Sequence record: OZ035791.1
Length of the DNA stretch: 40,766 nt
Reading direction: 5' to 3' (one strand)
From: Kagunavirus LF7074P3
Below, piece by piece: positions 4,655-38,559 of the stretch (position 1 is the first letter of the stretch; the number at the start of each line of letters is the position of its first letter). The notes beneath the pieces are model-generated. The model was given only the letters and a program-made list of their open reading frames with translations. It was not told the origin of the DNA and ran no database searches. Made by a program: the position numbers and the translations under genes.

Positions 4655-4681
4655 AGCGCCCCGCTTTAAGGCGGGGCTTTA
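4655..4681 (+). terminator. weak terminator / attenuator hairpin
   Basis: GCCCCGC-TTTAAG-GCGGGGC hairpin followed by only TTT; lies 20 nt before Rz start. Confidence 0.45.
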
Positions 4682-9400: not shown

Positions 9401-10569
9401 ATATGGCTACAACTCCTTTTAAGGGCGCGAATACCGCGCAATTCTATGTGGCGGAAACTACCCCGGGCGTAACACCAAGTAACCCGGTATGGTCACCATT
9501 GCGCAACACAGGTGGCGTTCCAGCGGTAACCCGCGATGCGCTGACTTCCAACGAACTCGACGGCAGCCGTGAAACTACATCCATTCGCACCGGTAACAAG
9601 CAGGTTAGCGGGGAGTATGCCATCGAACTTAGCTCACGTAGCCAGGATGACTTCCTTGCGGGGGCGATGACTTCTACGTGGCAAGCTGGGGTAGAGATTA
9701 CGGGCGCCGAAATTACGGTCGCCCCCGCGGGTAAAACATTCACCCGCGCTGCCGGTAGCTTCATTACTGACGGTGTAGAAGTTGGTGACCTGATCGCGTT
9801 CACCGACTTAACCGGCGACAACGCAAAACCGTTTATCGTGACCGCGGTTTCTGCTCTTGTAGTAACAGGCGCGGGCATTCAGCACACGCTGACAGCAGAG
9901 ACAGTAACCACTGACGCAAAAACTGGCGACAAACTGGAAACCGGTAACGCATGTAAGACGTTCTCCATCCTGACGTGGTTCAAAGGCCAGTGCGGCAACC
10001 CTGACGCATACATGCTGACCAAAGGCGTGGAAATCTCCGGTTTCACCATTGAACAGGCCGTAAACGCGATGGTGACAGGCAGCTTCCCGTTCATCGGTCT
10101 AAGTCAGGAAATTCTTACCACGCCGCCAGCAGGTTCCGACTTCTCTCAGGTCACATTCACCGATGAGCCGTTCTCTTCTGTGGATGTGTCTGTGTTCGAC
10201 GGTTCTACACCGTTGCGTTGCGACACACTTACCATCACCAACGACAACGGCGCTTCCGCACAGTTTGAACTAGGAAACAGTAGCGTTGCGTTCGTGGAAC
10301 GTGGTCGCGCGGCTAACACCTTCTCCATCTCCGGTAAGCTGTACGACATGGCGATGATTCAGAAGTTTATCAACGAGCAACAGGTGGAGATCAACTCTAT
10401 TCTGGCGGGGGTAAACGGGGCTATGTCTTTCAGCCTGAAACGTGCAGAACTCACGGCAGTTACGCCAGAGATTGGTGGACCTGAGTCGATCACTCAGTCT
10501 ATTGAAGGGCAGGCTACTGGCAACCAGTACCAGTCGTCTATTGTTATCCAGCGTATCACCTACGCATAA
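9397..10569 (+). CDS. major tail protein (positional call)
   Basis: 390-aa ORF, last gene before strong terminator. Confidence 0.6.
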   Translation: MNMATTPFKGANTAQFYVAETTPGVTPSNPVWSPLRNTGGVPAVTRDALTSNELDGSRETTSIRTGNKQVSGEYAIELSSRSQDDFLAGAMTSTWQAGVEITGAEITVAPAGKTFTRAAGSFITDGVEVGDLIAFTDLTGDNAKPFIVTAVSALVVTGAGIQHTLTAETVTTDAKTGDKLETGNACKTFSILTWFKGQCGNPDAYMLTKGVEISGFTIEQAVNAMVTGSFPFIGLSQEILTTPPAGSDFSQVTFTDEPFSSVDVSVFDGSTPLRCDTLTITNDNGASAQFELGNSSVAFVERGRAANTFSISGKLYDMAMIQKFINEQQVEINSILAGVNGAMSFSLKRAELTAVTPEIGGPESITQSIEGQATGNQYQSSIVIQRITYA

Positions 10570-10597: not shown

Positions 10598-11152
10598 TTA
10601 CAAACCTAATTTTAAAGCAATGTCTATAACGTTCGATTTAACGTCACCTGGTAGGATGTAGGTGTCGTAATCTTTTACACCGCTAACATCATACAGATAA
10701 CCGCGGCTGTCCCCCTCAAACGTATAGCCTTCTCGGTGCAGGCGAACGATTCTTACATCATGACCCGCGGCGACGATAGGGGCCACTTCGCTGGCGAACC
10801 CGCCGTCGGACACTACAAAAACTTCGTTGCCGTCGGGCAAGTTTTCAGCAAGATACTTACCGAAATAATCACTACCAAGTACCGGTTTAATGAATTGCTC
10901 AGATATAGCAATCATGAACTGACGCCGCGACAAGCCATTAAGGAAGCCTTCTGGCTTTTCTTTCCGCGCTCGGTCGTCGTAGCCGTCGAGAAACTCGTGG
11001 TAAGCACCCGGGCCTAACGCTGCCAGAGCAATATTGAACATTGGATTCTTGAAACTGGTAGTTCCCTTCGCAAAGCCCATCTCTACCAGCGCCATAGCAA
11101 GTGTGTCTTTCCCGCAACCCGCAGGGCCATTAAGAATAATTACCATAGCCAT
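10598..11152 (-). CDS. P-loop nucleotide kinase (dNMP-kinase-like)
   Basis: 184-aa ORF with Walker A GPAGCGKDT at N-terminus (SGKDT resembles T4 gp1-type dNMP kinases); start overlaps upstream stop (TAATG). Confidence 0.55.
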   Translation of the reverse strand: MAMVIILNGPAGCGKDTLAMALVEMGFAKGTTSFKNPMFNIALAALGPGAYHEFLDGYDDRARKEKPEGFLNGLSRRQFMIAISEQFIKPVLGSDYFGKYLAENLPDGNEVFVVSDGGFASEVAPIVAAGHDVRIVRLHREGYTFEGDSRGYLYDVSGVKDYDTYILPGDVKSNVIDIALKLGL

Positions 11153-11637
11153 TACTTATCACTCCCGTGCGATTTTAAGTGTGTAGAGTTCCCGTTACAG
11201 TCGTATTCAGTAACCGCGTGAGTGGTTATACCGAGGCCACGGAAATGCTTTATTACCGCTGGCGAGTCGTCGAATGCGCACAAGATTCTTTCCAGCCCGA
11301 TAGTACGTAGCACCTCTTCCTTAATTACGATGTCTTTTCTGTTGTCGTGTTTGCTGCGCATGATTAACTGATAAAATTCGACGCGGTGGCGCTGCAACCA
11401 CATTCTGGTTTCTTTTTCCGCGTCATCACTACGGCCTGTTAAGATAATAACGGCATAGCGACGATTAAGGGCGTTACACAGTTCGATGTTATCTTTAATG
11501 GGTGCATCGTCTTTGCACGCCATGTTAAATGGTTTCCACGCCCAGGTTTCGCCGTAGTTATCTTTCGGCAGCAGGTGTAAACGATGAGCACCATCTGCCA
11601 ATGTCCCGTCTAAATCGAAAATCACAATATCTTTCAT
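11152..11637 (-). CDS. HAD-family phosphatase, T4 Pnk 3'-phosphatase-like
   Basis: 161-aa ORF; N-terminal DLDGTL (DxDGT nucleophile motif), later TGRSDD, RKDIVIKEEV and AFDDSP segments paralleling T4 polynucleotide kinase phosphatase domain (recall-based). Confidence 0.65.
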   Translation of the reverse strand: MKDIVIFDLDGTLADGAHRLHLLPKDNYGETWAWKPFNMACKDDAPIKDNIELCNALNRRYAVIILTGRSDDAEKETRMWLQRHRVEFYQLIMRSKHDNRKDIVIKEEVLRTIGLERILCAFDDSPAVIKHFRGLGITTHAVTEYDCNGNSTHLKSHGSDK

Positions 11638-12770
11638 CCAAGCATCTCCGGTGAAATAGTTAAACGTGCGACCTCGCCATATTCGGCGCTATAAGTAATT
11701 ACGTTTGCACTGCGGCCCGACATCCACCCACCGCGGGAGGCATATGCATCTTTAGCCGCGAGAGTGCGGTGTTGCTCAACAATCATGTTACGGCTTTCTA
11801 CAATCTTTTGGTGGTGCAGGTGACCCACGTGGGCGTAGCTGTAAACACTCTCTCCGAACGCTTTGCGGAACTTGGCGATCATAACCGGTTCGATAGCGTC
11901 GAATCGTGCTTTATGCCCATGATGGAAGAACAGCGTCGTTTTGCCGTGTTGCACCATCTTGTAAACATCCGGCGACGTATCGACGAACACACGCGGCTCA
12001 TTGTCGTACAGCGTACTAAACATCTCAGCTAACCAAATCATTCCGCTTTCGTCGTGGTTACCTTGCACGATAAGCAAGCGAACATTTTTATGTTTAACGA
12101 GAGCCATATCAATGACACGGCGGACCATACGAATCATGTAGCGTACAAGTTTCTGATAGCGGGTGTCAGCGTCAAGAACATGGCCACTTGCGGGTGTAAC
12201 GGCATCCAGACTATCGAAGTGCGCGAAGTCACCTAGCAGGTTAATAACTCCTGTTCCCGCATCTGGCGCTTTCTGAAACGCTGCGTCGAACCATCGAGAG
12301 AACAGGTCTTCTGCGATTTTCATATCCCAGTCGTCGCCGCTCTCGTCGGCCCATGCCAGCATACCGAGATGAAAATCAGATACAGTGTAAAGATTGAGTA
12401 GCTTGTCGTCACGTTTGGTGCGCACGGCTTTAACCGGCGCAACGGGGGTAATCTCTGACTTCATGCCCTCAATTACGGCTTTCATAGCCTCTAACTGTTT
12501 CTCTTTATCCGGCTCGGAAATCACCCACGTCATCACCTCTTCGCCATTAGCCTTTACGCAAGCGGATATTCTTTTAGCAGAGAACCCTTCCGCTATGCGT
12601 TTGGATATTACTGGGTCGTTCCCGTGACCTATGCCCTTCTTGGCTAATCGTGCTTTACGGATACGAATTACGCGGTCTGAGATGCCGTATTTACGGGCGA
12701 TGTCTATATTCCTCATCCCGGCGCTCAATTCTTCCTGTAACTGTTCGTCGGTTATTTTCTTCTGGGCCAT
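11634..12770 (-). CDS. metallophosphoesterase with N-terminal HTH domain
   Basis: Calcineurin-like motifs SDFH, GDFAHFD, GNHDE, HHGH, GHLHH; N-terminal HTH-like ...IDIARKYGISDRVIRIRK...; ATG 12770 chosen (RBS GAGGAAG); track ORF extends to 12875. Confidence 0.65.
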   Translation of the reverse strand: MAQKKITDEQLQEELSAGMRNIDIARKYGISDRVIRIRKARLAKKGIGHGNDPVISKRIAEGFSAKRISACVKANGEEVMTWVISEPDKEKQLEAMKAVIEGMKSEITPVAPVKAVRTKRDDKLLNLYTVSDFHLGMLAWADESGDDWDMKIAEDLFSRWFDAAFQKAPDAGTGVINLLGDFAHFDSLDAVTPASGHVLDADTRYQKLVRYMIRMVRRVIDMALVKHKNVRLLIVQGNHDESGMIWLAEMFSTLYDNEPRVFVDTSPDVYKMVQHGKTTLFFHHGHKARFDAIEPVMIAKFRKAFGESVYSYAHVGHLHHQKIVESRNMIVEQHRTLAAKDAYASRGGWMSGRSANVITYSAEYGEVARLTISPEMLG

Positions 12771-12808
12771 GCTTACTTCCTCGTGTTTAGGATTTGTCCT
12801 ATAGTAGC

Positions 12809-13000
12809 CTACTTCTCTTTCACGTTCGAGTTGCAAGCCCAGATTAAAATAAAGACCCACGGCAGCAGAACCCAACCAAGAAACAGATTAGCCATGAATA
12901 TCGCTAACTTCGCTTTATGGTTACGGAAGTACGCAACCAGGAAAGGCGCGAAATAAGCGAGCAGTGCAAACAGAATTAAGGAAACTGGTAAACTGGACAT
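12809..13000 (-). CDS. small 2-TM membrane protein, superinfection-immunity (Imm) family-like
   Basis: 63 aa from ATG 13000 (RBS AAGGGG); ...AYFRNHKAKLAIFMANLFLGWVLLPWVFILIWA... resembles Imm_superinfect-type small membrane proteins (recall-based). Confidence 0.45.
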   Translation of the reverse strand: MSSLPVSLILFALLAYFAPFLVAYFRNHKAKLAIFMANLFLGWVLLPWVFILIWACNSNVKEK

Positions 13001-13030
13001 TTTAAACCCCTTCATTGTTGGTGTAAGTGA

Positions 13031-13059
13031 ATAGTACCCTATTATATTGGGGTGTGCAA
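13031..13059 (-). promoter_or_regulatory. sigma70-like promoter TTGCAC-N17-TACTAT driving the minus-strand island
   Basis: Minus-strand reading cTTGCACaccccaatATAATAGGGTACTATTCAC; 32/34 identical to promoter at 34757-34790. Confidence 0.6.
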
Positions 13060-25220: not shown

Positions 25221-25505
25221 TTAACTATAATAGCTCGCTATTAGGTCGTCAACCTGTTTAAACGAACCAACGACAAAAACATTCGCACCACGTTTACGCA
25301 TCCGCTCGTGCTCACGTAACTGGTGTGGGTCTGGCTTCGTGTTTTCGTCTTTCTTAACCTCGACGAACAAGACGATGCCGCCGGGTAGAATTACCAGCAG
25401 ATCGGGAGCGCCGGAGCGCCCCTCATAGGAAAGTTTACGAACGAGGCCGCCGATAGCCTCGAATCGCTCTTTTGCGTATTTCTGGATGCGCCCCTCTTTA
25501 GTCAT
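25221..25505 (-). CDS. VRR-NUC domain nuclease (PD-(D/E)XK)
   Basis: 94 aa; ...GAPDLLVILPGGIVLFVEVKK... matches PD..(D/E)xK core of VRR-NUC family. Confidence 0.65.
   Translation of the reverse strand: MTKEGRIQKYAKERFEAIGGLVRKLSYEGRSGAPDLLVILPGGIVLFVEVKKDENTKPDPHQLREHERMRKRGANVFVVGSFKQVDDLIASYYS
25224..25252 (-). promoter_or_regulatory. sigma70-like promoter TTGACG-N17-TATAGT (minus strand) with ATAG-N4-CTATTAG dyad in spacer
   Basis: Minus-strand gTTGACGacctaatagcgagctatTATAGTt; lies inside 3' end of VRR-NUC ORF. Confidence 0.6.
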
Positions 25506-25654
25506 GAGCGCAGAATCCAGGTAATGAAAGCCCCGCCTAGAACGGCGACACCGGCAAACTTAAAGAACAGGCCATAACAGAACATCGCGGCTATTCCTGC
25601 ACCGAGTAGCAGTGCGAGCATGGTTACTATCACCCGAAATACGAACATTGTCAT
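25502..25654 (-). CDS. small membrane protein (50 aa)
   Basis: MTMFVFRVIVTMLALLLGAGIAAMFCYGLFFKFAGVAVLGGAFITWILRS; stop overlaps VRR-NUC ATG (ATGA). Confidence 0.35.
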   Translation of the reverse strand: MTMFVFRVIVTMLALLLGAGIAAMFCYGLFFKFAGVAVLGGAFITWILRS

Positions 25655-25740
25655 AATACGCACCCCTCCCGTTTCGTATGCGCGATACCGCAGCGAGGGC
25701 AGATTCGACAGTCTTCTTCGTAGAACCAGTAAATTTTCAT
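25651..25740 (-). CDS. small Cys-rich protein (29 aa)
   Basis: MKIYWFYEEDCRICPRCGIAHTKREGCVL; ATGA overlaps on both sides. Confidence 0.3.
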   Translation of the reverse strand: MKIYWFYEEDCRICPRCGIAHTKREGCVL

Positions 25741-25868
25741 TCCAGCACCCACAGATAAATTGCGATGAATATACCCAATACGGCTACCATCATGCCGTAT
25801 CGCCCCTCATGACAGTAGACACCCGCGGCGAATCCCGCCAGTACCGCAATAATCAGTTTACTTAGCAT
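25737..25868 (-). CDS. small membrane protein (43 aa)
   Basis: MLSKLIIAVLAGFAAGVYCHEGRYGMMVAVLGIFIAIYLWVLE; ATG lies 10 nt inside the 3' end of the polymerase ORF in another frame. Confidence 0.3.
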   Translation of the reverse strand: MLSKLIIAVLAGFAAGVYCHEGRYGMMVAVLGIFIAIYLWVLE

Positions 25869-28107
25869 ATCGCTTCATCTCCGCACCTTCAGCTACAAGA
25901 GGGAACCCCTCCGCCCATTCCGGTAATTCGCACATCAATCGTTCCAGTTCTGCTACATTATATTCCGGTGAATCTGGTGTCTCGCAGATAATCTCATCGT
26001 GTACGTGAAGTACAATCGGGTAGCCGTTTGCTTCTACGTTCAGCAGGGCATTAGCCAGCAAATCGCGGCACAGCGCCTGAGTGCAGTTTTCCACCAGTTT
26101 GCCTGAGTACGTGTACTGGAATCCCCACTGACGAGTTAACTGGTTCTCCCCCTGATACTTGATGCGCACGTTAGTAGAAACTTTCCCGTCTTCGTCCGTC
26201 TCTTTCGATACGCTCAATCCGACGCCAGGGTAAGACATTACGCGGCCTGACGGCAACGTCATACGCAACCACCAACCAGCGACTTTGTTGCCGTTGTTGT
26301 CTGTCTCCACGTTACGCGAAAACTTAACGCCGCGCGGCCCCGCGGTGAACTCTTTACCGGGATTGCGGATAGCCGCCATAGCTGCGTCTTCAATATCTCG
26401 CCAGAAAGCTACTGTTTCAGGATGAGACTCGCGCCACATACGCTTGATAGCGTCGCAGGTACGCCACACTTTCTTGTCCAGAATATATGATGGTCGGTCA
26501 TCTTTTTCACCGGGACGTGGTGGTCTCTTGGCTTCCTGAATACGCGCCCACTCATAACCCCGCGCGGTAGCGGCCCATATATGGCCTGGGAAAGTACCGT
26601 CCATTGTTTTAGCCATATCAAAAAGGTTTAAGCCGAGGTTTTTAGCAAACTGAACGAAAGCACCGACACCACCTGCATAGCCGAGGCCCAATTCACATGC
26701 TTTACCAATCTGGCGCAGGTCACTACGGCTTTCGAGAATGTAATCAGGGTCCATGCCAAACATCTTACCTGCAGTTACGCAGTAAATATCCAATCCCGCA
26801 CGGAAGGTATCTAGCGCGGTTTCTTCTCCTGCCAGCCATGCCAACCCGCGTCCTTCGACGTTAGAGTAATCGGCGACTACAAACTTATGTCCGGCTTCCG
26901 GTATGATGCAACTACGCACCGTCGACGCCGTTAGCTTGGCTACATCAAAACGGCGATGCGCACGACCTTTAAACAACAGGTCGATTCCGTAGGACAATGG
27001 GTGTGTTACTCTCCACCAGTCCTTCTCTGACATCCAGTCATAACGTACTTTCTTCTTTTTATTCTTCGGGTCGTCGTGATAGTACCCGCGCGCCAGGTTC
27101 TGCGGCTGGAAGCCTTTACCCGCAAACCGTAATGTACGCTTTGCCCCACCGTACTGGATGCAACCGCGGCGTCGGTCGTCCGACGAGCGACCTAACAGCA
27201 GCGGGTTATATTTCGTTGACGCGGTAGACGCGGCCCCGAGTCGCATCTCGATAATCGCGCTGGCGTCGTCCGGTAAATCGTCGTCAGCAAGCAGGTCGTT
27301 AAGCGTTGACTTCTGTGCGTTGTGAATACGGTGCGCCGGTGCGAGTTCACGCAGAATCGGAAGGAAGTCCTTTCCGGTAAGCGAGCCGCCGTATTTACGT
27401 TGGGCTTCTTCCTGTAACTGTGCTTTGTGCTTCTCCACGGCTTCAATCGCGGCTTCCGCCAGTGCCACGTCAACCTTAAACCCGCGGTCATTTATTAACT
27501 GATCCAGTTCCAGTACCCGGTCCTCGAATTCAGAGTTACCCCAACGCGGCAGCTTATAGAAGACTTCACGCATCGCAGTGATGTCGCTCACAGCGTACTT
27601 GATGAACAGAGCCCACTCGTCAGGGTGAGTTTCTGCGGTGTAGCGGCGGATTTTGTAGTTCTTTGGCGTCGGTTTAGAGAAACGCTTAATCAGCGCCTTG
27701 CCGCGTTTATCTTTCGCGTTGTCCGCGGATACACCCAGCACTTCGCACAACGCATCAAGTGAACCAGGCAGCGCGTGACGAAACGCCCAAATCATCGTAT
27801 CAATGGTGTTGCTTACCGGAATATCAAAGCCCCAGCAGTGTTTCATGATGAGCCTGTCGAACATTGAGCCGTTATGCCACACCATCTTGATGCGACTGTT
27901 TGGCTTCACCAGACGGCGTAACGCGCGGTGCAAATCCCCCGGCATGTCGCTGCCGTCTGTGCAATCCCATACCCGCACAGGCTCGTCGTCAAAAGCATAT
28001 GTACAAATAAGGACTTCGGTAGTTGGATGCTCAGCGTAAGCGTAGGAACCAACTTTCTTCAAATCGGCTTCGGAGAATGTTTCAAAGTCTAAGAACAGGT
28101 AACTCAT
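25858..28107 (-). CDS. family A DNA polymerase with 3'-5' exonuclease domain
   Basis: 749 aa; exo motif DFETFS near N-terminus; pol motifs DYSNVEGR (motif A), RQIGKACELGLGYAGG (motif B), HVHDEI (motif C). Confidence 0.9.
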   Translation of the reverse strand: MSYLFLDFETFSEADLKKVGSYAYAEHPTTEVLICTYAFDDEPVRVWDCTDGSDMPGDLHRALRRLVKPNSRIKMVWHNGSMFDRLIMKHCWGFDIPVSNTIDTMIWAFRHALPGSLDALCEVLGVSADNAKDKRGKALIKRFSKPTPKNYKIRRYTAETHPDEWALFIKYAVSDITAMREVFYKLPRWGNSEFEDRVLELDQLINDRGFKVDVALAEAAIEAVEKHKAQLQEEAQRKYGGSLTGKDFLPILRELAPAHRIHNAQKSTLNDLLADDDLPDDASAIIEMRLGAASTASTKYNPLLLGRSSDDRRRGCIQYGGAKRTLRFAGKGFQPQNLARGYYHDDPKNKKKKVRYDWMSEKDWWRVTHPLSYGIDLLFKGRAHRRFDVAKLTASTVRSCIIPEAGHKFVVADYSNVEGRGLAWLAGEETALDTFRAGLDIYCVTAGKMFGMDPDYILESRSDLRQIGKACELGLGYAGGVGAFVQFAKNLGLNLFDMAKTMDGTFPGHIWAATARGYEWARIQEAKRPPRPGEKDDRPSYILDKKVWRTCDAIKRMWRESHPETVAFWRDIEDAAMAAIRNPGKEFTAGPRGVKFSRNVETDNNGNKVAGWWLRMTLPSGRVMSYPGVGLSVSKETDEDGKVSTNVRIKYQGENQLTRQWGFQYTYSGKLVENCTQALCRDLLANALLNVEANGYPIVLHVHDEIICETPDSPEYNVAELERLMCELPEWAEGFPLVAEGAEMKRYAK

Positions 28108-28123
28108 TATTTTCGACCCTTAG

Positions 28124-28147
28124 TAAAAAGGCCCAATGAAGGGCCTT
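28124..28147 (-). terminator. partial terminator/attenuator between SSB-like gene and polymerase
   Basis: Minus-strand AGGCCC-TTCATT-GGGCCT hairpin followed by TTTTA. Confidence 0.4.
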
Positions 28148-28166
28148 AGTTAAATTGATTCAGATA

Positions 28167-28793
28167 TTATCGGCGACGACGTTCGCGGCGCGGTGCTTCA
28201 TCCTCTTCATCGTCTTCAAGGTCATCGACGCTTGCGGCTACTTTAGAACCGCCAAACGCTTTACCTTCACCAACGTATTTAATAGCCAGCAGGTTAACGC
28301 CGAGGACTTTGTATTTCTGGCTGAACCAGATTTCAACGCTTACGTTAGCGACGCAGCCGCTGTAAACCTGTTCACCTTCAATCTGTTCGCCGTCTACGTT
28401 GAAGTCCTGCTCTACCTGAGTCTCACCTTTTTTAGAGGTTACAATCAGCGGCTGCTTCTGTGCCTTCGCTTTGAAGTAGAAGCCTTCTGGGAAGTCTTCA
28501 AACGGGTTATCACGCTCAGCAATGTCTTTAATCGCGCATTTATCCATGTGCTTACCTTCGCCGTAGTTGGACTTCATCCATTTCTCGGCAGCAGCTGCGC
28601 CTAACGCTTCTTCAACTACAGCGTAAACAGTGTCGTAGAGTGCATCGATTTGAGCGTGGTCAGGCGGCAGGATGATAGTCGCGCTATACTGGCCTTTAGT
28701 GATGGAGCCATCATCGTTTTCACGGTCTTTTTCGCGTTCGAATACGTTAACCCATGCAGTGTTTACTTTACGCAGATTCAGTTTAATTCCCAT
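28167..28793 (-). CDS. ssDNA-binding protein-like (DUF2815-like)
   Basis: 208 aa with acidic C-terminal tail DDLEDDEEDEAP followed by RRERRRR; adjacent to Cas4-like nuclease as in known DUF2800/DUF2815 phage pairs (recall-based). Confidence 0.55.
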   Translation of the reverse strand: MGIKLNLRKVNTAWVNVFEREKDRENDDGSITKGQYSATIILPPDHAQIDALYDTVYAVVEEALGAAAAEKWMKSNYGEGKHMDKCAIKDIAERDNPFEDFPEGFYFKAKAQKQPLIVTSKKGETQVEQDFNVDGEQIEGEQVYSGCVANVSVEIWFSQKYKVLGVNLLAIKYVGEGKAFGGSKVAASVDDLEDDEEDEAPRRERRRR

Positions 28794-28847
28794 CTTAATT
28801 TCTCGCTTTTCAGTTTACTCCTGGAAGCTGCCAGGCCAGTGATTAGA

Positions 28848-28876
28848 ACTATAATAGCTAACTATTCAGGTGTCAA
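28848..28876 (-). promoter_or_regulatory. sigma70-like promoter TTGACA-N17-TATAGT (minus strand) with ATAG-N4-CTATTCA dyad
   Basis: Minus-strand gTTGACAcctgaatagttagctatTATAGT; 55 nt upstream of SSB-like gene start. Confidence 0.7.
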
Positions 28877-28880
28877 CAAT

Positions 28881-30122
28881 TTATTCTAAATCTTCTTCAC
28901 TAACCCGATTCCACTCAGGACGTTTGTCGTTTGCCGTTGCGACACATGGCGCTCCTGGCTTACGGGTAATGAAGTCTTTCAGTTCATCTTCCGGTATGAC
29001 TTTAACAGCTTCGGTTGGCGTCATGAGCACTTCTTTAGTCAGCTTGTCGCCGTAGAGTTCTGTTACTTTCTCCGCGTCTTTCCACGCACGGTTGCCCATC
29101 TTACCTTCAACCAGCTTGTACCCAGGAACTTTCTTACCGGAATGCAATGCGGCGGTCATCGCTTTCTCAACCTTGTCGATGTGCTGGCGTAACAGCGGCA
29201 ACTTCTCATACTCAACTACGAGTTGCTCCGTCGTCAGTTCCAGCGCAAAGTCGTCTTCCAGTTCTTCCGCCAGTACAGAATTAACCGTCTTTGTACGTGC
29301 GGCACACTGTTCAGAGAACCGGCACCACTGGCAACCATCGACCGACGGTTTAAAGTCCGACGCTTTCAGGTTCTTCTTTCCACGGAAATAAGCATCAAGC
29401 GCTAACAGTGCCCGTTTCTGTGCGAACTTAGCGAACAGTTCCAGACCTTCGACCGAGATGTCCCACTCTGACGCACCCCCTGCGTACGGCTGGAAGATGA
29501 CCAGGCGCACTACTGTGATGTTATAACGTCTCTTGAGTCGGCGATAAACACCGAGAGCGTAAAGCATAAGCTGCTTGTTTTCTTTCGCTTCGACACGATG
29601 CCGTCCTGTTTTAAGGTCGCCGATAATTAGCATGTGCTCATCGGTGTTAGCCAGTTCCTGAATGGCAACAAGGTCAGCGGTTCCGAACGTCTCAACGCCT
29701 TCATATCCCGGATGCAGCACCTCAGTAAGATTGACGCGCATTTCCAGCTTGGCATAAGTCGCTACGTCTATAATCGCTTTGCAGTAGTCGGTGTACTTGC
29801 GCACCTGCTCAATCATGTCCGCCGTGATTAGTACAGCGCCTTTCATCTGACTAATTAGCGCCTTAATCTGGCCTTTACCCTCGTCCAGCACGTAAGCGCC
29901 GACTTCACGCTCTAGCGGCAGTGCATTGCCGCGGATATAGGCGTTGAGATGTACCTCAGCTATGGTGTGCATAGCCGTGCCTAATACCGCGGCTTTACCG
30001 GACGTGTTGGGGATATCTTTCTCACAGGCCAGTGATGCGGCGCAGCTTAGCCACTTTTTAGCCCCGGACGGCGATAGTAAAGCGTGTACGTCGTTATTGC
30101 CACCGCGTTCTTTTAGTTTCAT
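28881..30122 (-). CDS. PD-(D/E)XK nuclease, Cas4/RecB-like (DUF2800-like)
   Basis: Motifs GTADLV ... IIGDLKTG ... QLMLYA and C-terminal Cys cluster CQWCRFSEQC; ATG 30122 with RBS GGGAG preferred (track start 30143). Confidence 0.7.
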   Translation of the reverse strand: MKLKERGGNNDVHALLSPSGAKKWLSCAASLACEKDIPNTSGKAAVLGTAMHTIAEVHLNAYIRGNALPLEREVGAYVLDEGKGQIKALISQMKGAVLITADMIEQVRKYTDYCKAIIDVATYAKLEMRVNLTEVLHPGYEGVETFGTADLVAIQELANTDEHMLIIGDLKTGRHRVEAKENKQLMLYALGVYRRLKRRYNITVVRLVIFQPYAGGASEWDISVEGLELFAKFAQKRALLALDAYFRGKKNLKASDFKPSVDGCQWCRFSEQCAARTKTVNSVLAEELEDDFALELTTEQLVVEYEKLPLLRQHIDKVEKAMTAALHSGKKVPGYKLVEGKMGNRAWKDAEKVTELYGDKLTKEVLMTPTEAVKVIPEDELKDFITRKPGAPCVATANDKRPEWNRVSEEDLE

Positions 30123-30277
30123 GCTCTTAAACTCCCACCCCATTTAACTTTACGCGTTTTGCGTTTATATGCGCACGTGTCGCCGCTACGGTTGAATATA
30201 ATCAGCCAAGTCGAGTTGCTTACTCGAAAAGGCTGGTGGCGTTTAATAAAGAGAAGTCGCGCTTTACGGTTCGTCAT
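30119..30277 (-). CDS. small basic protein (52 aa)
   Basis: ATG with AGGAG 8 nt upstream; stop overlaps nuclease ATG (ATGA); not in ORF track. Confidence 0.35.
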   Translation of the reverse strand: MTNRKARLLFIKRHQPFRVSNSTWLIIFNRSGDTCAYKRKTRKVKWGGSLRA

Positions 30278-30317
30278 TCTGTAAACTCCTAAATCCACGC
30301 GAAATCAGAATACATAA

Positions 30318-30596
30318 TTACAAACATGCTCTGTTCTCCCACTGGTCAATTAAATGTCTGGTCTGGTGCTGGCAATGCATGGCCCATCCATACATCGACT
30401 CGAAGACATAAAAGTCAGGCTTGGCAAAAGTCGTGCGCTTAATCTGCGACACATGACGGCCTATATCTTTAGCCCGCGGTACTTTGCCTAAGTACGCCAT
30501 CTCTTCCATCTGGTGTGCACCGGACGGCGCACGCAATAACCATAGCGCCTCTGTGTTATCCCGCCGGTCAACGGCGCGGTATAGTTGGTAAATCAT
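30318..30596 (-). CDS. hypothetical protein
   Basis: 92-aa ORF in leftward operon. Confidence 0.45.
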   Translation of the reverse strand: MIYQLYRAVDRRDNTEALWLLRAPSGAHQMEEMAYLGKVPRAKDIGRHVSQIKRTTFAKPDFYVFESMYGWAMHCQHQTRHLIDQWENRACL

Positions 30597-30639
30597 AATC
30601 CCGACCCTCAGTTAAAGCGGCCCGAAGGCCGCGAGATAA

Positions 30640-31107
30640 TTATTCTTCTTCGAAATACTTGTTCTTGATTGCCGTCAGGCGTTCCAGGTATTCAGCAAGG
30701 TCTTCGTCTTTAATCGCGGCAATCTTCATCTTCTTACCGGTGAACTCTTCCAGCAGTTCATCGGAATCATCGCACGCGGCGTCGCTCGGACCTTCGTTAA
30801 TTGCATCGTCGATAGCCTGAATCTGGTCACGCAGAGACTGGTAATCTACTTCTTCCTTCTCTTCCGGTTCTGGCGTCGGTTCCTCTACTTTAGATTTACG
30901 CGGCTTGCGTTTCGGCTTCTCTTCTTCTGCTGGTTTAGTGTCAACGATGTCTTCACCTTCAACCGGGATTTCTTTTGTTGCTTCTTTTGCAACATCAGGC
31001 TCGGTTGTTGCGGTTTCAGCAACGACAACTTGTTTCGCGCTGTTCGCAGCAATCAGTTCATGGGCTACTACGAAACGTTCCAGTAATTTTAAGAATTGGT
31101 CTAACAT
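30640..31107 (-). CDS. highly acidic hypothetical protein
   Basis: 155 aa, long Glu/Asp-rich stretches with one KRKPRKSK patch; first gene downstream of leftward promoter 31139-31168; RBS GAGGAG. Confidence 0.5.
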   Translation of the reverse strand: MLDQFLKLLERFVVAHELIAANSAKQVVVAETATTEPDVAKEATKEIPVEGEDIVDTKPAEEEKPKRKPRKSKVEEPTPEPEEKEEVDYQSLRDQIQAIDDAINEGPSDAACDDSDELLEEFTGKKMKIAAIKDEDLAEYLERLTAIKNKYFEEE

Positions 31108-31138
31108 TTGTTTCTCTCCTCTCGTTTGGTATGGGTTA

Positions 31139-31168
31139 ACTATAATAGCGAACTATTCATGATGTCAA
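31139..31168 (-). promoter_or_regulatory. sigma70-like promoter TTGACA-N18-TATAGT (minus strand) with ATAG-N4-CTATTCA dyad
   Basis: Minus-strand aTTGACAtcatgaatagttcgctattATAGT. Confidence 0.65.
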
Positions 31169-31173
31169 TGGGC

Positions 31174-31204
31174 TTTTCTAAAATAATTAATATGGTACTA
31201 TTCA
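31174..31204 (+). promoter_or_regulatory. candidate rightward promoter/operator for cro-like gene
   Basis: ATAT-ggta-CTATTCA dyad (31190-31204) with TACTAT -10-like hexamer; -35 poorly defined. Confidence 0.3.
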
Positions 31205-31232
31205 CATATCAACTGACTAAGGAGTAATTGAC

Positions 31233-31448
31233 ATGCAACCATCTGAACTAGGCATCCGTGTAGAGCAACGCCGTAAAGAACTCGGTATCTCCCAGCGCCA
31301 TCTGGCTGTCCTGGCCGGTGTTTCCCAAGGCGCGATTAACCAGCTGGCACTTGGAGTAACTCAGGACGTCCGCCCGGCGACGCTGTTTAAACTGGCGGAA
31401 GTGCTGGAAGTAGACGCCAAGTGGCTGGCGTTCGGTGAAGGGGCTTAA
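31233..31448 (+). CDS. Cro/CI-type (XRE-family) HTH DNA-binding protein
   Basis: 71 aa; ...ELGISQRHLAVLAGVSQGAINQL... HTH; RBS AGGAG; transcribed opposite to surrounding leftward genes. Confidence 0.75.
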   Translation: MQPSELGIRVEQRRKELGISQRHLAVLAGVSQGAINQLALGVTQDVRPATLFKLAEVLEVDAKWLAFGEGA

Positions 31449-31463
31449 CGCCCCTTTCTTTTT
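31439..31463 (+). terminator. rho-independent terminator (rightward only)
   Basis: AGGGGC-TTAAC-GCCCCT hairpin + TTTCTTTTT overlapping cro-like stop. Confidence 0.7.
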
Positions 31464-31465
31464 AC

Positions 31466-33673
31466 CTATTCCAAATCCTCTTCTGTCACCACCAGCATTT
31501 CATTCGGTTCGTATATTGTCTTCGGTCTTAGTCTATCCCCTATTCTTTCAGGTATACGATACGTTCTCGGTACTACTTCGCCATTAGCATCACAGCCTAG
31601 CATTAGTTCACCATCTTTCAGCATTTTATCAAGATGGGTGTTAGTCACAGAAAAGTCACCGGAACGGGCCACTATCTGCTGCTGAGTAAAACCGCGACCT
31701 GTGTCATCTGACTGTTGCAGGTCTTCCAGTGCCGAAAGTATCGACTCCTTCCTTACTTCATCCCTGCCGCGTTTAACTTCTTCCTTTACTTTTTGTTTAC
31801 CTTCGTTAGTTAACCCTTCTTCCCGCTCTTTCTCCTCGTCAGTTTTGAACGGCTCGAAGCCCCACGGCATCAGAACAAGCGCCTTGTGTGGTTCCGGCAG
31901 GTCGAGGTTTACGATTGTGCCGTATTCCTCTGTGCTGCCCAAGAACTCAACAGCACGGTACTCTTTCGGCGGTGGTGCTTCACGGAACTGTACAGACTCA
32001 AGTACCATGCCAACCGTTTTCTGTTGAGGCCCGTGCTTAAATTTCGAGTGGTATACGTTTATCTGACGGTCGGTTGCACGTTCTATTGTCAGTTCCACAT
32101 CGACACCCGCATACAGCGCCCCGCTGCCACGGGCTTTCTTTCCGCCCTTCGGTGTATGGTGGACGACGCCCACCGCGGCTTTAGTTGCGTCACGTACTTC
32201 TTTAAGGATGGCGATAACTTTACCCATGCCGATTGCCGTTGATGAACTGTTCTCGTCGAACTTATCAATCGTCATGGCCAGTGTCTGGTTAAGGGTGTCG
32301 AACGCAACCATCCCAATTGGCTCGTCACCCGCAGTTTCTCGCATTAGCTTAATCAGGCTTTTCAGTTTGCCAACTTCGCCCATATCGATGACATGTACAT
32401 AATCTTTACCTTCCTCGCCGTATTTAGCCGCGAGTGCATCAATACGGGTGCGTGTGGCAGCACCGCCCTCACCGTCAATATAGAAATGGTGGCAACGCTG
32501 TGTATCAGCGCCTGCAAACCGGTACCCGGCGGCGCTCAGGTACATCATACCCAGCGTATAGAATGATTTATATGTGCCGGATTCCCCGACGATGTCCCAG
32601 ATGCAATCCGACGGCATGTACCCTTCAACGACGAAATCAGCCTTTACCGGTTCAGGTAACTCGTCATCGTCTTCAAGGTCTTCCAGTGTACAAGTTACAG
32701 GCTCCTCGTTCTCTGTGCGGTGCAGTTCTTCAATCTCTTCATCCGGTAAATCAGGCAGAGCCGCACGAATGCTGTTAATACTGATAGGTTGCTTGTCTAC
32801 GTTAAGCTCGTCCGGAAGGCCGCACATACGCAGGGCCAAATGTTGTCGGCGGTTAAGCTCAGTGCAAGCACCGTTGTTTGTGTGCTGGCACACGAAGCGC
32901 ACTTCTTTACCGTCGAGCATGATGCTGGTGGAGCCTTTGCCGGTGTGCAGGTGTTCGTTAGGGCAAGGCACTTCGTACCCGCGACCGGAAGATAAAGCGT
33001 CAAGGCCAAGCTCCGCTTCGCAGAAATGCGCTATATCCGCGTTAAGCCCATGCTCATCGGCAGCAAGGGTCTTAGCTTCACGCTTACGCAACCCCATTTC
33101 TTCGGCTTTCTTGATGTACCGCTCGGCACGGATAACACGCCCTTCTGTAACCGTTATCTTCGACTCTTTATGCGGCAGGTAGATAAGGCGGTTGCCATCT
33201 TCTGTGCAGTGGTCGCGCAATGCTTCGTCTATTTCTAACTCAGCACAAATAGCACGTTGCACCATCCACGCGTCGTTAGAGTTAAACGGCGTGCGGGCCG
33301 GTACAAGAACGCGGAAAGCGTAGTCACCGTTTTTACACGCGTGCTGGTGCGACGCCGTTGTGTGCAGAATATTGAAGAACGGCGCGTTCTTGAATTTGCG
33401 GGTGAGGTCGCGGTACTGGGTACGGTTTAGATGGTCGAAATCGAACTTAACCACACTGTCTTCCAGAATCGCGTTCTTACGGCGACCGCCAACCGGCGCA
33501 ATAGCTTTCTGCTTAATCTTGGCCGCGTCGTACTCTTCCTTAGTCCATGACGGGTCTACGGACAGACGCTTCGATGTATCGCAGACATACTCTACAAACT
33601 GCTCCAGTGGCATTTCACGGGCTACCGGGTTTTTATCGAAAGTGTTACGCAGCGTTGCAAAAACAATATTCAT
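31466..33673 (-). CDS. DNA primase / RecA-like ATPase (primase-helicase-like) replication protein
   Basis: 735 aa; central Cys/His zinc-binding-like segment (CPNEHLHTGK...C), Walker A-like GESGTYKS and Walker B-like VAFDTL. Confidence 0.7.
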   Translation of the reverse strand: MNIVFATLRNTFDKNPVAREMPLEQFVEYVCDTSKRLSVDPSWTKEEYDAAKIKQKAIAPVGGRRKNAILEDSVVKFDFDHLNRTQYRDLTRKFKNAPFFNILHTTASHQHACKNGDYAFRVLVPARTPFNSNDAWMVQRAICAELEIDEALRDHCTEDGNRLIYLPHKESKITVTEGRVIRAERYIKKAEEMGLRKREAKTLAADEHGLNADIAHFCEAELGLDALSSGRGYEVPCPNEHLHTGKGSTSIMLDGKEVRFVCQHTNNGACTELNRRQHLALRMCGLPDELNVDKQPISINSIRAALPDLPDEEIEELHRTENEEPVTCTLEDLEDDDELPEPVKADFVVEGYMPSDCIWDIVGESGTYKSFYTLGMMYLSAAGYRFAGADTQRCHHFYIDGEGGAATRTRIDALAAKYGEEGKDYVHVIDMGEVGKLKSLIKLMRETAGDEPIGMVAFDTLNQTLAMTIDKFDENSSSTAIGMGKVIAILKEVRDATKAAVGVVHHTPKGGKKARGSGALYAGVDVELTIERATDRQINVYHSKFKHGPQQKTVGMVLESVQFREAPPPKEYRAVEFLGSTEEYGTIVNLDLPEPHKALVLMPWGFEPFKTDEEKEREEGLTNEGKQKVKEEVKRGRDEVRKESILSALEDLQQSDDTGRGFTQQQIVARSGDFSVTNTHLDKMLKDGELMLGCDANGEVVPRTYRIPERIGDRLRPKTIYEPNEMLVVTEEDLE

Positions 33674-33798
33674 TTCTTTTTCTCCGCGCGTTCTAAGGCT
33701 TCCTGCATACGACGCATTGCGCGGTTCATCTTTACCGGTGCGAAGAAATCAGCGCCGTGTTTCTGGCGGCGCAACTGTGGAACTATTAACTTCGTCAT
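33670..33798 (-). CDS. small basic protein (42 aa)
   Basis: RBS AAGGA; stop overlaps primase ATG (ATGA). Confidence 0.3.
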   Translation of the reverse strand: MTKLIVPQLRRQKHGADFFAPVKMNRAMRRMQEALERAEKKK

Positions 33799-33838
33799 TG
33801 TATAATCCTTGTGCTTACTTTGATGATTTGTGCTTCGG

Positions 33839-33869
33839 CCCCGACGTTCTAGCGTTGGGGTTTCTTTTT
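33839..33869 (+). terminator. plus-strand hairpin + T-tract inside leftward operon
   Basis: CCCCGACG-TTCTAG-CGTTGGGG (one G-U) followed by TTTCTTTTT; hairpin weaker on minus strand. Confidence 0.4.
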
Positions 33870-34158
33870 ACCGTTTAGCCAACTCTTCCAGCAAATTTTT
33901 ATACTCTTCAAAATATTCCTCGACCAAATCATCGCCGAAATAGAAGTCGATATACTCGAGATTATCTCTTACGTTAAGCGACGCAGACATGGTGCTTAGT
34001 TGGCGTAAGCTAATTAGCTTCATTTCTGTTTCTACACAGAAAGGCCGGTAGGTATCGAGGTGGCAAGAGATGTTGAAGCATAAAGCGAACTCTCCCGCCA
34101 CGGAGTGAACCATATACACTTCGTTTTCTGCTTTATTGTGGAAAATTACACCTTTCAT
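33868..34158 (-). CDS. hypothetical protein
   Basis: 96-aa ORF, ATGA overlap with upstream HTH gene. Confidence 0.45.
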   Translation of the reverse strand: MKGVIFHNKAENEVYMVHSVAGEFALCFNISCHLDTYRPFCVETEMKLISLRQLSTMSASLNVRDNLEYIDFYFGDDLVEEYFEEYKNLLEELAKR

Positions 34159-34337
34159 TTCACATTCTCCTTAATCCATTCTTCAACTTTATTACGGTCA
34201 AATGTACCTGGTAAACGGCGACCCATAACCTTAATACAACAATCAGGGAATTTACCACTGCGCAACCAGTTATTAATTGTCTGACGTGTTACCCCAATAC
34301 GCTCGGCTACTTCATTCTGGGTCATGTAATGTTGCAT
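34155..34337 (-). CDS. small HTH DNA-binding protein (AlpA/excisionase-like fold)
   Basis: 60 aa from ATG 34337 (RBS AGGAG); ...MTQNEVAERIGVTRQTINNWL...; track ORF to 34451 judged an extension across promoter DNA. Confidence 0.55.
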   Translation of the reverse strand: MQHYMTQNEVAERIGVTRQTINNWLRSGKFPDCCIKVMGRRLPGTFDRNKVEEWIKENVK

Positions 34338-34368
34338 TTTTATATCTCCTGTTTGTTTGGTGAAGCTG

Positions 34369-34397
34369 AGTATAGGATAGCGGGAATGTAAAAGCAA
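34369..34397 (-). promoter_or_regulatory. leftward early promoter TTGCTT-N17-TATACT
   Basis: Minus-strand hexamers with 17-nt spacer, about 25 nt upstream of ATG 34337. Confidence 0.5.
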
Positions 34398-34434
34398 CCA
34401 ATCCCTGCAATATTTAATCTTTACAAAAAAGTTA

Positions 34435-34464
34435 TTGAAAGTTCTTGACACATGTTTGTATAAT
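34435..34464 (+). promoter_or_regulatory. rightward promoter TTGAAA-N18-TATAAT
   Basis: Consensus -10 TATAAT at 34459-34464; divergent from leftward promoter; no ORF for about 350 nt downstream. Confidence 0.5.
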
Positions 34465-34491
34465 GGTTTTGGGACTTGTATATATTACGGA

Positions 34492-34523
34492 GTTGACGAA
34501 CCCTCCCTGAGGGATTCGTCAAC
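34492..34523. repeat. 32-bp near-perfect palindrome GTTGACGAAcCCTCcctGAGGGaTTCGTCAAC
   Basis: 14-bp arms with one bulge; read directly. Confidence 0.8.
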
Positions 34524-34663
34524 CCCTCCCAGACAGCTGAGATGCTTGTTTTAGGGTTTAAGGATAAGTGTATCTAAATCTCATTTAAAGAAGTAACCCA
34601 CTGAAATATCTACTGTTTCTTAATGTGCCGTAGATTCGCAACCGTAAAAATGTAACGATTATT

Positions 34664-34691
34664 GGGCAGGCTTAAGGCCTGCCCTTTAGTT
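34664..34691 (+). terminator. rho-independent terminator
   Basis: GGGCAGGC-TTAAG-GCCTGCCC hairpin followed by TTTAGTT. Confidence 0.6.
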
Positions 34692-34756
34692 ACCAAGTAA
34701 TAAGAATAAAGGCACAACCTTCCCCGAAGAATCGCAACGGCAGCGTAACTATTCTC

Positions 34757-34785
34757 TTGCACACCCCAACATAATAGGATACTAT
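34757..34785 (+). promoter_or_regulatory. sigma70-like promoter TTGCAC-N17-TACTAT with ATAG-N4-CTATTCA dyad
   Basis: cTTGCACaccccaacATAATAGGATACTATTCAC; near-identical copy on minus strand at 13027-13060. Confidence 0.65.
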
Positions 34786-34819
34786 TCACTTATCGGAACG
34801 AGACAGAGGAGTTGGGGTT

Positions 34820-35005
34820 ATGTTTAAGAAGGGTCAGTTGGTGAGAACCAGACACCATGGCAAAGGTGTAATTAAGCACGTTTCGCAGAGAGTTGCAGAT
34901 AGGTATCTTCTTACCAATCCGTATTGGGATTTTGATATGTATTTCCAGGGACGCGAAATAGTAGAGCTCATCGGCAACAATTTTAAATTCAAAGGGGCGA
35001 AGTGA
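34820..35005 (+). CDS. hypothetical small protein
   Basis: 61-aa ORF, RBS GAGGAG. Confidence 0.5.
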   Translation: MFKKGQLVRTRHHGKGVIKHVSQRVADRYLLTNPYWDFDMYFQGREIVELIGNNFKFKGAK

Positions 35006-35190
35006 TGGAAGAATTAATTTACGACGTATACGTCGACGGGGTCATAACAGAGACGACAAGTAATAAAGATTACGCAATAAAGCGGTATGTGTATTATGCC
35101 GCAGTGGTAGGAAGGATGGTAGAAGTGCGGGAGCAAACGGCATCGAATCATGATGCTCGTGCCGACGACTCTGAGGGAGGTTGCCGTTAA
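35005..35190 (+). CDS. hypothetical small protein
   Basis: ATG 35005 overlapping previous stop; RBS AGGGG. Confidence 0.45.
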   Translation: MEELIYDVYVDGVITETTSNKDYAIKRYVYYAAVVGRMVEVREQTASNHDARADDSEGGCR

Positions 35191-35345
35191 TGCGAATCCG
35201 TATAACTGACCGCAGGCTTATAGATTTCGGTATCTCGGTAGGTGATGTTTTTCTGGCGTTCAGCAGCAACCATTATGGTTTTATGATTGAGTACAAAGGG
35301 TCGTTATTGTTCGTGTATCGGGATGAATGTGAGGTTCTGGTATGA
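35190..35345 (+). CDS. hypothetical small protein (51 aa)
   Basis: TAATG overlap, RBS GAGGGAGG; not in ORF track. Confidence 0.4.
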   Translation: MRIRITDRRLIDFGISVGDVFLAFSSNHYGFMIEYKGSLLFVYRDECEVLV

Positions 35346-35485
35346 GAGAAGCATTTGAACGGTGGGCTGTGGTCGAGGGTCTGCCGGTTAACAAGGGTTC
35401 AAAGAAAGAGTACCTGAACGTTAAGACCCGTCTCGCGTGGCGGGCGTTGAAAGCTGGTGTGTTGTCTGTTGCGAATCCGAGGTGA
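35342..35485 (+). CDS. hypothetical small protein (47 aa)
   Basis: ATGA overlap with upstream ORF; not in ORF track. Confidence 0.35.
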   Translation: MREAFERWAVVEGLPVNKGSKKEYLNVKTRLAWRALKAGVLSVANPR

Positions 35486-35488
35486 GAT

Positions 35489-35689
35489 ATGAGCGAGTGG
35501 ATTAAGTGTAGTGAGATGCTGCCAGGTAATGGGTATACGGATAAAGAGTTCCTGGTGTATGAAACGTTAAATAACGCAGTTCAGCACGATTATTACATAG
35601 TTCCTGATGACGGGAGAAAGCCTTTCTGGAATCACTACGATAAGTACGTGACGCACTGGATGCCGTTACCCGAGCCGCCAGAAGTGTGA
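35489..35689 (+). CDS. hypothetical protein (DUF551-like C-terminus)
   Basis: 66 aa ending ...VTHWMPLPEPPEV, reminiscent of DUF551 phage proteins (recall-based). Confidence 0.45.
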   Translation: MSEWIKCSEMLPGNGYTDKEFLVYETLNNAVQHDYYIVPDDGRKPFWNHYDKYVTHWMPLPEPPEV

Positions 35690-35822
35690 TGTTCAATAGT
35701 TTGGGATCTTACTGAGTGACTTACGCTGCTACACAGCAGCGTACAACTTTAACTTAGTGTCGTCAAAGGCGACACTTTCATCAAACGCAACAATCGAAGC
35801 GACTATTGCAGGAGATGCAACA

Positions 35823-35996
35823 ATGATTACTAAAGAACAGGCTGAACGACTAATCACGTTAATCGACACGATGATTGACGTAAAAACCGATTTAGCAACG
35901 GCAACAGAGGAATCCGCTACCTGGTCGCTTGAAGAAAGAGAAGCAGAAGCGGAAAGGGAGTTACTGGCGTTCATCGACTCTATAACACACCAATAA
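35823..35996 (+). CDS. hypothetical small protein
   Basis: ATG 35823 with GGAG 8 nt upstream; in frame with track ORF 35757..35996. Confidence 0.4.
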   Translation: MITKEQAERLITLIDTMIDVKTDLATATEESATWSLEEREAEAERELLAFIDSITHQ

Positions 35997-36003
35997 AATT
36001 TAC

Positions 36004-36032
36004 TTGCACACTAAGATAGAATAGGCTACTAT
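36004..36032 (+). promoter_or_regulatory. sigma70-like promoter TTGCAC-N17-TACTAT with ATAG-N4-CTATTCA dyad
   Basis: aCTTGCACactaagatagAATAGGCTACTATTCA, 32 nt upstream of gene at 36064. Confidence 0.6.
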
Positions 36033-36063
36033 TCATTTACACAAACGAGAGGGGAGACAGAAT

Positions 36064-38509: not shown

Positions 38510-38530
38510 TCTATTTTCTGCAATGACTAG

Positions 38531-38559
38531 TTGACTATTATCCTAGACCCTACTATATT
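38531..38559 (+). promoter_or_regulatory. sigma70-like promoter TTGACT-N17-TATATT
   Basis: Hexamers with 17-nt spacer, 34 nt upstream of ATG 38593. Confidence 0.55.

Follow-up and report, generated by a model that had tools for sequence, protein, structure and literature searches.

Genome layout and dyad-bearing promoters

This analysis concerns Kagunavirus LF7074P3 (sequence record OZ035791.1), whose DNA was examined as one window of 40,766 nt and treated as an essentially complete genome, and a 14-bp dyad that recurs in its promoters. The phage is a virulent E. coli siphovirus of the genus Kagunavirus, subfamily Guernseyvirinae, a group that is strictly lytic according to the literature. 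Over the 12 kb round the dyad region it shares 97.7% identity with Kagunavirus LF7074P1 and some 91% with the BASEL phages Bas70-76. Following the layout of the annotated relatives Bas71 and Salmonella phage Jersey, the structural genes run rightward, together with small early genes and the lysis genes, and a leftward replication block encodes an SNF2 helicase, a DNA polymerase, a Gp2.5/Enc34-like single-stranded DNA (ssDNA)-binding protein, a PD-(D/E)XK exonuclease and a helicase-primase. No integrase, CI repressor or RNA polymerase (RNAP) is annotated in Jersey or Bas71, and no RNAP gene was seen among the large open reading frames (ORFs) of the window.

All seven dyads sit in predicted promoters of the host sigma-70 type, in two registers. 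In three near-consensus leftward promoters, which are the best three sigma-70 matches within 22-40.8 kb, the dyad occupies -25..-12 in the spacer; in four weaker promoters it lies over the -10 at -19..-6 and, in the rightward and island class, takes in most of that hexamer. The features needed here are the following, the dyads being given as putative operators and the genes downstream as those that each predicted promoter would drive.

31139..31168, minus strand: P-L3, TTGACA-N18-TATAGT, 11/12 consensus match, perfect operator 31144-31157 in the spacer; genes for a 155-aa acidic protein and the PD-(D/E)XK exonuclease
28848..28876, minus strand: P-L2, TTGACA-N17-TATAGT, operator 28853-28866 at -25..-12; genes for the ssDNA-binding protein (Pfam Enc34_ssDNA-bd) and DNA polymerase
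25224..25252, minus strand: P-L1, TTGACG-N17-TATAGT, operator 25229-25242, inside the VRR-NUC gene, at its 3' end; a 64-aa ORF and the gene for the SNF2 helicase
34757-34785, plus strand: P-R1, TTGCAC-N17-TACTAT, operator 34773-34786 on the -10; the small early genes that start at 34820
36004-36032, plus strand: P-R2, TTGCAC-N17-TACTAT, operator 36020-36033; genes from 36064 on to the holin and endolysin (lysozyme Pfam match)
13059-13031, minus strand: P-I, the island promoter, TTGCAC-N17-TACTAT, operator 13030-13043; minus-strand genes for Imm-like, Metallophos-like and HAD/PNKP phosphatase proteins within the structural module
31189..31202, plus strand: O-X, AATATGGTACTATT, with one mismatch, lying on the extended -10 of the XRE promoter; putative site of autoregulation
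31233..31448, plus strand: gene for a 71-aa XRE/HTH_3 protein resembling 434 Cro (Pfam HTH_3, 2e-11), the proposed dyad-binding repressor
31437..31457, plus strand: hairpin terminator at the end of the XRE unit, which has this one gene
34158..34337, minus strand: gene for a 60-aa AlpA/excisionase-like HTH_17 protein (Pfam HTH_17, 4.9e-8)
38526-38539, plus strand: ACTAGTTGACTATT, a one-mismatch dyad and possible weak eighth site, across the -35 of TTGACT-N17-TATATT (to 38559)

An earlier, sequence-only reading of this DNA had placed the dyad in the spacer of TTGACA-N17-TATAGT promoters serving leftward replication genes. This is indeed the arrangement, with two variants, the N18 spacer at 31168..31139 and TTGACG at 25252..25224. 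The same reading had the dyad overlapping the -10 of TTGCAC-N17-TACTAT promoters in the rightward and island units, which agrees with the promoters at 34757, 36004 and 13059 (minus strand) and not with that of the XRE gene, where neither a -35 nor TTGCAC is present and an extended -10 (TGGTACTAT, 31193-31201) is found. The single mismatch of O-X to the dyad creates the TG of this extended -10, and the O-X sequence is identical in most Kagunavirus loci. The XRE gene stands as a unit by itself, with a dyad-bearing promoter and a terminator of its own; it is divergent from P-L3, so that two dyads lie 45 bp apart 5' of the gene. The promoter of the helicase-primase operon (TTGCTT-N17-TATACT, about 34362-34390, minus strand) carries no dyad. 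The promoter at the possible eighth site lies ahead of the small genes that lead into the terminase, and the site is kept in Kagunavirus and Jerseyvirus; ACTAGTTGACTATT could be a weak eighth operator on this promoter, which points towards the terminase and the structural genes.

The recurrent unit is a symmetric 14-bp palindrome

The element was originally described as an asymmetric dyad, ATAG-N4-CTATTCA, present at seven sites. This exact pattern has five matches in the window (13028 on the minus strand, 28854, 31145, 34774 and 36021) against 0.01 expected. The recurrence stands, and the description had to be revised: two of the seven sites deviate, the one at 25230 (ATAGCTCGCTATTAG) by two mismatches in the TCA tail and the one at 31190 (ATATGGTACTATTCA) by one mismatch, and the unit common to the sites is the symmetric 14-bp palindrome AATAG-N4-CTATT. 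Perfect copies of the palindrome number six (13030, 25229, 28853, 31144, 34773 and 36020), and the seventh, with one mismatch, is the copy in the promoter of the 71-aa XRE helix-turn-helix (HTH) gene.

A motif scan with shuffled controls bore out this excess, six perfect copies being observed and 0.00 expected from dinucleotide shuffles. We then asked whether AT-rich promoter composition might explain the frequency. On an AT-rich background only, defined as the 12.2 kb of window stretches with at least 60% AT, the six perfect copies compare with 0.019 expected, and 11 copies with at most one mismatch compare with 0.65 expected. The excess therefore persists, and AT-rich composition does not account for it. 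Moreover, when all 5+5 palindromes with spacers of 0-12 bp were enumerated blindly, AATAG-N4-CTATT ranked first of all dyads in the window.

Orientation, register and conservation of the element

In Kagunavirus the element is slightly asymmetric, TG-AATAG...CTATT-AT, and relative to transcription it faces one way in the leftward class and the opposite way in the rightward/island class; the registers of the two classes are 6 bp apart. Such an inversion, together with the register shift, fits a symmetric DNA-binding dimer and not a directional promoter element. A symmetry of bidirectional promoters was also considered and rejected, as a -10-like hexamer is present on one strand only at each site.

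To follow the conservation of the element, the six best sites were located through flanking homology in 35 other Kagunavirus loci, and 25-33 distinct sequences were obtained for each. Agreement with the window was 99.6% over the ten half-site positions, 88% over the four central ones and 92-94% over the flanks, part of which is coding. The two half-sites of a dyad have different surroundings in either promoter class: one overlaps the -10 hexamer or lies directly beside it, and the other falls in the spacer, whose bases sigma-70 does not contact specifically. Since the spacer half-site is as conserved as 99.6% with no demand from sigma-70, promoter function alone cannot explain the pattern. Conserved half-sites, a free centre, independence of orientation and two registers are together the signature of a symmetric dimeric DNA-binding protein.

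The same sequence element has been noticed before in a relative. The genome paper of Kagunavirus fBC-Eco01 (PMC9825357) lists seven PHIRE sites with the consensus tgAATAGTa-ccTATTat-T, individual sites including TGAATAGTACCCTATTATAT and TGAATAGTACCATATTAATT, and terms them phage RNAP promoters; their palindromic, orientation-independent nature is not discussed there. Seven PHIRE promoters are reported in the Golestan paper too, and in the Jersey record sigma-70-like promoters are annotated at the corresponding places. The fBC-Eco01 element is the dyad described here, in seven copies per genome, so the recurrence of the motif was already known. The searchable literature yielded no mention of a palindromic, orientation-independent operator or of a link between the element and the XRE protein.

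These annotations raise the possibility that no trans-acting factor is involved, the dyad being either the core of a duplicated promoter family or a promoter for a phage RNAP. Besides the annotation of the seven fBC-Eco01 sites, the position of one half-site on or directly beside the -10 hexamer in each class speaks for such a view. The lack of an RNAP gene, noted above for Jersey, Bas71 and the window's large ORFs, speaks against it, as do the inversion of the element between promoter classes, its two registers, and the strict conservation of the spacer half-site round a variable centre. We regard a factor-free origin of the dyad as hardly probable. As for the phage RNAP attribution, it is contradicted by the lack of the gene combined with the inverted orientation of the element, and the label is a misreading.

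Distribution of the dyad among related phages

In Jersey the dyad core is present at the orthologous promoters 29243, 32930 and 39910 and at the island site 16957, with a variant at 35812; at up to one mismatch, seven dyads are found against 1.19 expected. The copy at the Jersey XRE promoter is degenerate. A scan of IMG/VR on the basis of an alignment of the XRE protein gave 64 loci. Kagunavirus loci (5-20 kb) hold 2-6 perfect dyads each and Jerseyvirus loci 2-4; Serratia phage Tsm2 has two perfect dyads and two with one mismatch, at orthologous promoters, and the L051-53 lineage has 0-1 perfect dyads and 2-4 with one mismatch. In Cornellvirus (VSiP, ZS and loci L054-57), no dyad was found at up to one mismatch, and the homologous promoters show only two-mismatch relics such as AATACTAAACTAAT. 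De novo enumeration of dyads yielded no replacement operator in Cornellvirus. Two other dyads in L051, TAAGA-N4-TCTTA and CATCG-N4-CGATG, were rejected as operators, both lying within coding sequence.

Next to the unconstrained half-site, Kagunavirus has a G (TGAATAG) and Jerseyvirus a T (xTAATAG), and this holds at no fewer than five independent site types. With its two orientations and two registers, the conservation of its half-sites and its persistence across genera, the dyad gives good support to the claim that one operator family spans the replication, early and island promoters.

The XRE protein is the favoured binder

The product of the 31233-31448 gene has phage 434 Cro as its best sequence match in the PDB (phmmer, E 5.5e-7, residues 6-68, 38-41% identity). 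Its AlphaFold2 model comprises five helices (predicted local distance difference test, 79), and a Foldseek search with this model returned 434 Cro and repressor (template modelling score 0.74-0.81), P22 c2, SinR and the controller (C) proteins. The protein was found in 502 phage records. Its recognition helix, helix 3 (GVSQGAINQLALG), does not vary in Kagunavirus, nor in any of the homologues with an overall identity down to 77%. That two dyads stand 5' of its gene, one of them on the promoter of the gene itself, points to this protein as well. The XRE gene is the only HTH gene common to all dyad-bearing lineages (Kagunavirus, Jerseyvirus, Tsm2 and the L051 group), and when all window ORFs were profiled against the complete genomes of Jersey, Tsm2 and VSiP, no other gene had a distribution matching that of the dyad. 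A search for an independent genomic context of an XRE protein with the same helix, across 5.8 billion proteins, returned only contigs of ~40-45 kb from the same phage group.

According to these results, we consider it reasonably probable, on the grounds of sequence comparison, that the dyad serves as operator for a dimeric HTH repressor of the phage itself, most probably the 71-aa 434-Cro-like XRE protein.

The second HTH protein considered was the AlpA-like product, which the sequence-only reading had named as an alternative binder. Its gene is the first of the dyad-free helicase-primase operon, and in this reading the protein would bind the dyad and control the other promoters as an immediate-early regulator. 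It is a DNA-binding HTH protein by Pfam and is 78-100% conserved between Kagunavirus and Jerseyvirus, the genera richest in perfect dyads; dyad-free Cornellvirus phages such as VSiP also lack its gene, and gene order equates this gene with an HTH gene termed 'early' in the K1B4 RNA-seq study, the data there being weak. This candidate was favoured early on, the joint lack of gene and dyad in VSiP being the reason, and was then rejected on two grounds. First, the complete genome of Tsm2 has perfect dyads and no HTH_17 homologue by tblastn or a family hidden Markov model. Second, the AlpA recognition helix varies within Kagunavirus (VTRQTINNW, VTRRTLNNW, VSPMTLNRW), and the dyad and its flank remain unchanged. 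In addition, Kagunavirus loci with a Jersey-like AlpA helix still carry the flank G, so the flank follows the type of XRE protein (or the genus) and not AlpA. The winged helices of Xis and AlpA type are generally monomers on direct repeats, not binders of 14-bp palindromes. The comparative evidence thus disfavours AlpA, and binding by this protein appears very unlikely. The analogy with the Pseudomonas aeruginosa AlpA antiterminator, whose element also lies between -35 and -10, was rejected as not comparable because that protein is much larger, forms a ring at the RNA exit channel and uses a 6-bp asymmetric site.

Two observations on the AlpA-like gene may be recorded here. It exists in at least four allelic types in Kagunavirus (67-100% identity; loci L005, L015, L030, L009 and L022), the recognition helix being included in the variation. 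In Cornellvirus and Tsm2, where the gene is missing, the helicase-primase gene has the opposite orientation and stands after the XRE gene.

Several observations weigh against the XRE protein as binder, and they make it the best available hypothesis rather than the 'obvious' candidate that it had been called. Cornellvirus keeps an XRE orthologue (41-43% identity) and has no intact dyad. Helix 3 reads SQSLITH in Jerseyvirus and SQGAINQ in Kagunavirus, a difference of four residues, the Jerseyvirus version being closer to the TQSAISH of Cornellvirus; despite this, the 5-bp core of the dyad is the same in Jerseyvirus. The XRE promoter region of Tsm2 carries no dyad, and the co-variation of the flanking G or T with the XRE type is confounded with genus phylogeny. 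Finally, a simple early-to-late switch is inadequate if all major promoters, including those of the lysis genes, are repressed.

The identity of the core in phages of three host genera in spite of the differing recognition helix, like the retention of XRE by dyad-free Cornellvirus, would fit a binder of another kind: a host transcription factor that Escherichia, Salmonella and Serratia share, or a phage protein that has escaped recognition. The latter is opposed by the gene profile, in which XRE alone fits the dyad distribution, and the genus-specific change of the flanking base at many sites argues for a co-evolving partner encoded by the phage. Cornellvirus infects Salmonella, as Jerseyvirus does, but lacks the sites, which argues against a host factor, and we know of no enterobacterial regulator with a consensus matching AATAG-N4-CTATT. 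Binding by a host factor or another phage protein is therefore unlikely in our view, though less so than binding by AlpA.

Two further observations concern the XRE gene itself. In Bas71 (L001, PQ850615), an intact XRE ORF, 94% identical, lies unannotated at 9310-9522, and a 96-nt minus-strand ORF is annotated instead. One variant, protein P0001, has 84 aa and contains a 13-residue tandem duplication of its N-terminal segment (QPSELGIRVEQRR-QPSELGIRVEKRR).

A proposed Cro-type circuit in a virulent phage

With the XRE protein as repressor, we propose the following scenario. Upon infection, the host sigma-70 RNAP would fire the promoters, the leftward ones being near consensus and the four with TACTAT weaker. 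The XRE protein would accumulate from its own weak extended -10 promoter, and its dimers would bind the 14-bp sites with one recognition helix per AATAG half-site, the half-site centres being 9 bp apart. The dimers would occupy the perfect operators, and the transcription of the replication, early, lysis-proximal and island genes would be turned down together. Because the sites lie either between -35 and -10 (-25..-12) or on the -10 (-19..-6), a bound dimer is expected to exclude the polymerase. The imperfect site on the promoter of the XRE gene would lead to a delayed, late negative autoregulation. The motif with its frequency, promoter registers and selective conservation, as well as the family and fold of the XRE protein, are what the analysis shows; the identity of the binder, repression upon binding and the order in which the sites are occupied are what we infer. 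If ACTAGTTGACTATT is functional, the XRE protein would be a general governor rather than an early-to-late switch. The temporal classes in the K1B4 RNA-seq paper are too coarse for testing repression.

The net effect would be the Cro half of the lambdoid switch, standing alone in a virulent phage. The closest parallel is 434 Cro, which recognises 14-bp operators, ACAA-N6-TTGT, whose outer bases are conserved and whose centre is variable and uncontacted. Like the XRE protein, 434 Cro (PDB 3CRO, 2CRO, 1ZUG) has 71 aa in a five-helix HTH_3 fold, and the recognition helix opens with an invariant Gln; like the dyad, the 434 operators are 14-bp palindromes with conserved outer bases and a non-conserved centre that overlap sigma-70 promoters. 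The two systems differ in the half-site (AATAG here, ACAA in 434) and in the number of operators, at least seven here dispersed over most non-structural transcription units and two operator clusters in 434. Moreover, this virulent phage has neither a CI partner nor a tripartite OR/OL, and lysogeny is lacking.

The Cro proteins of lambda and P22 resemble the proposed XRE role in being small repressors, made early, that lower early and replication transcription as well as their own synthesis. However, the fold of lambda Cro differs from that of XRE, and both proteins are part of a bistable CI/Cro switch of which only the Cro-like half is present here. The controller proteins of restriction-modification (R-M) systems, such as C.AhdI and C.BclI, are another comparison: they are small XRE proteins of similar predicted structure that bind paired palindromes (C-boxes) in their own promoter, resulting in concentration-dependent autoregulation. 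These proteins serve one promoter region beside the R-M genes and both activate and repress, whereas the phage genes lie outside any R-M context, with sites whose placement suits repression only.

Since the circuit is of a standard Cro type, the biological surprise would be small. It would be of use for annotation and for phage engineering; Kagunavirus and Jerseyvirus are widely used as therapeutic and engineering chassis, for example CM001 and the BASEL phages Bas70-76. If the proposal is true, the 'phage promoters' are host sigma-70 promoters gated by one small repressor and genome annotations would be corrected; co-regulation is predicted for the replication, early, lysis-proximal and accessory island genes; a compact, orthogonal repressor-operator pair would be available for synthetic circuits; and there would be hints for timing payload expression in engineered phages.

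One could extend this scenario to the whole of the Guernseyvirinae, in which a single Cro-like repressor, acting alone on dispersed operators, at least seven in number, would run nearly all non-structural transcription. The flanking base (TGAATAG in Kagunavirus, TTAATAG in Jerseyvirus) would then define 'immunity groups', and a resident repressor would silence a superinfecting relative, resulting in cross-exclusion among virulent phages. This is a speculation to which we give a low probability.

Other observations

Two further elements resemble the dyad or its half-sites. At 2816-2829, TATAGTATGCTATT is a one-mismatch dyad directly after the terminator at 2796-2811 that overlaps the ATG (2822) of a head-morphogenesis gene; it may be a chance occurrence. 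In the interval 4436-4680 on the plus strand, a perfect 16-bp palindrome, AACTATTCGAATAGTT, holds the dyad half-sites in everted order and abuts a TTGACT-N17-TAAGCT promoter, which is followed by ~200 nt with no ORF up to a terminator at 4658-4677, just 5' of the gene at 4702. This palindrome was not found in Jersey, Tsm2 or VSiP.

At 34435-34690 on the plus strand, a near-consensus promoter TTGAAA-N18-TATAAT (11/12) precedes a stretch of about 220 nt with no ORF, which includes a long hairpin and runs to a strong terminator at 34664-34684. The stretch is possibly a small RNA. Its first ~170 nt are present only in the window, Bas71 and locus L007, as a variable insert. The stretch has no Rfam match, and an Rfam scan of the window gave zero matches.

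Finally, the dyad promoter P-I heads an accessory island at 10598-13015, on the minus strand and thus opposite to the structural module within which it lies. Its products are a superinfection-immunity-like protein (PF14373), a 413-aa Metallophos-like protein, a phosphatase of the HAD/PNKP type and a 184-aa protein of no assigned function. At the corresponding position, Jersey carries an anti-repressor and an exonuclease.

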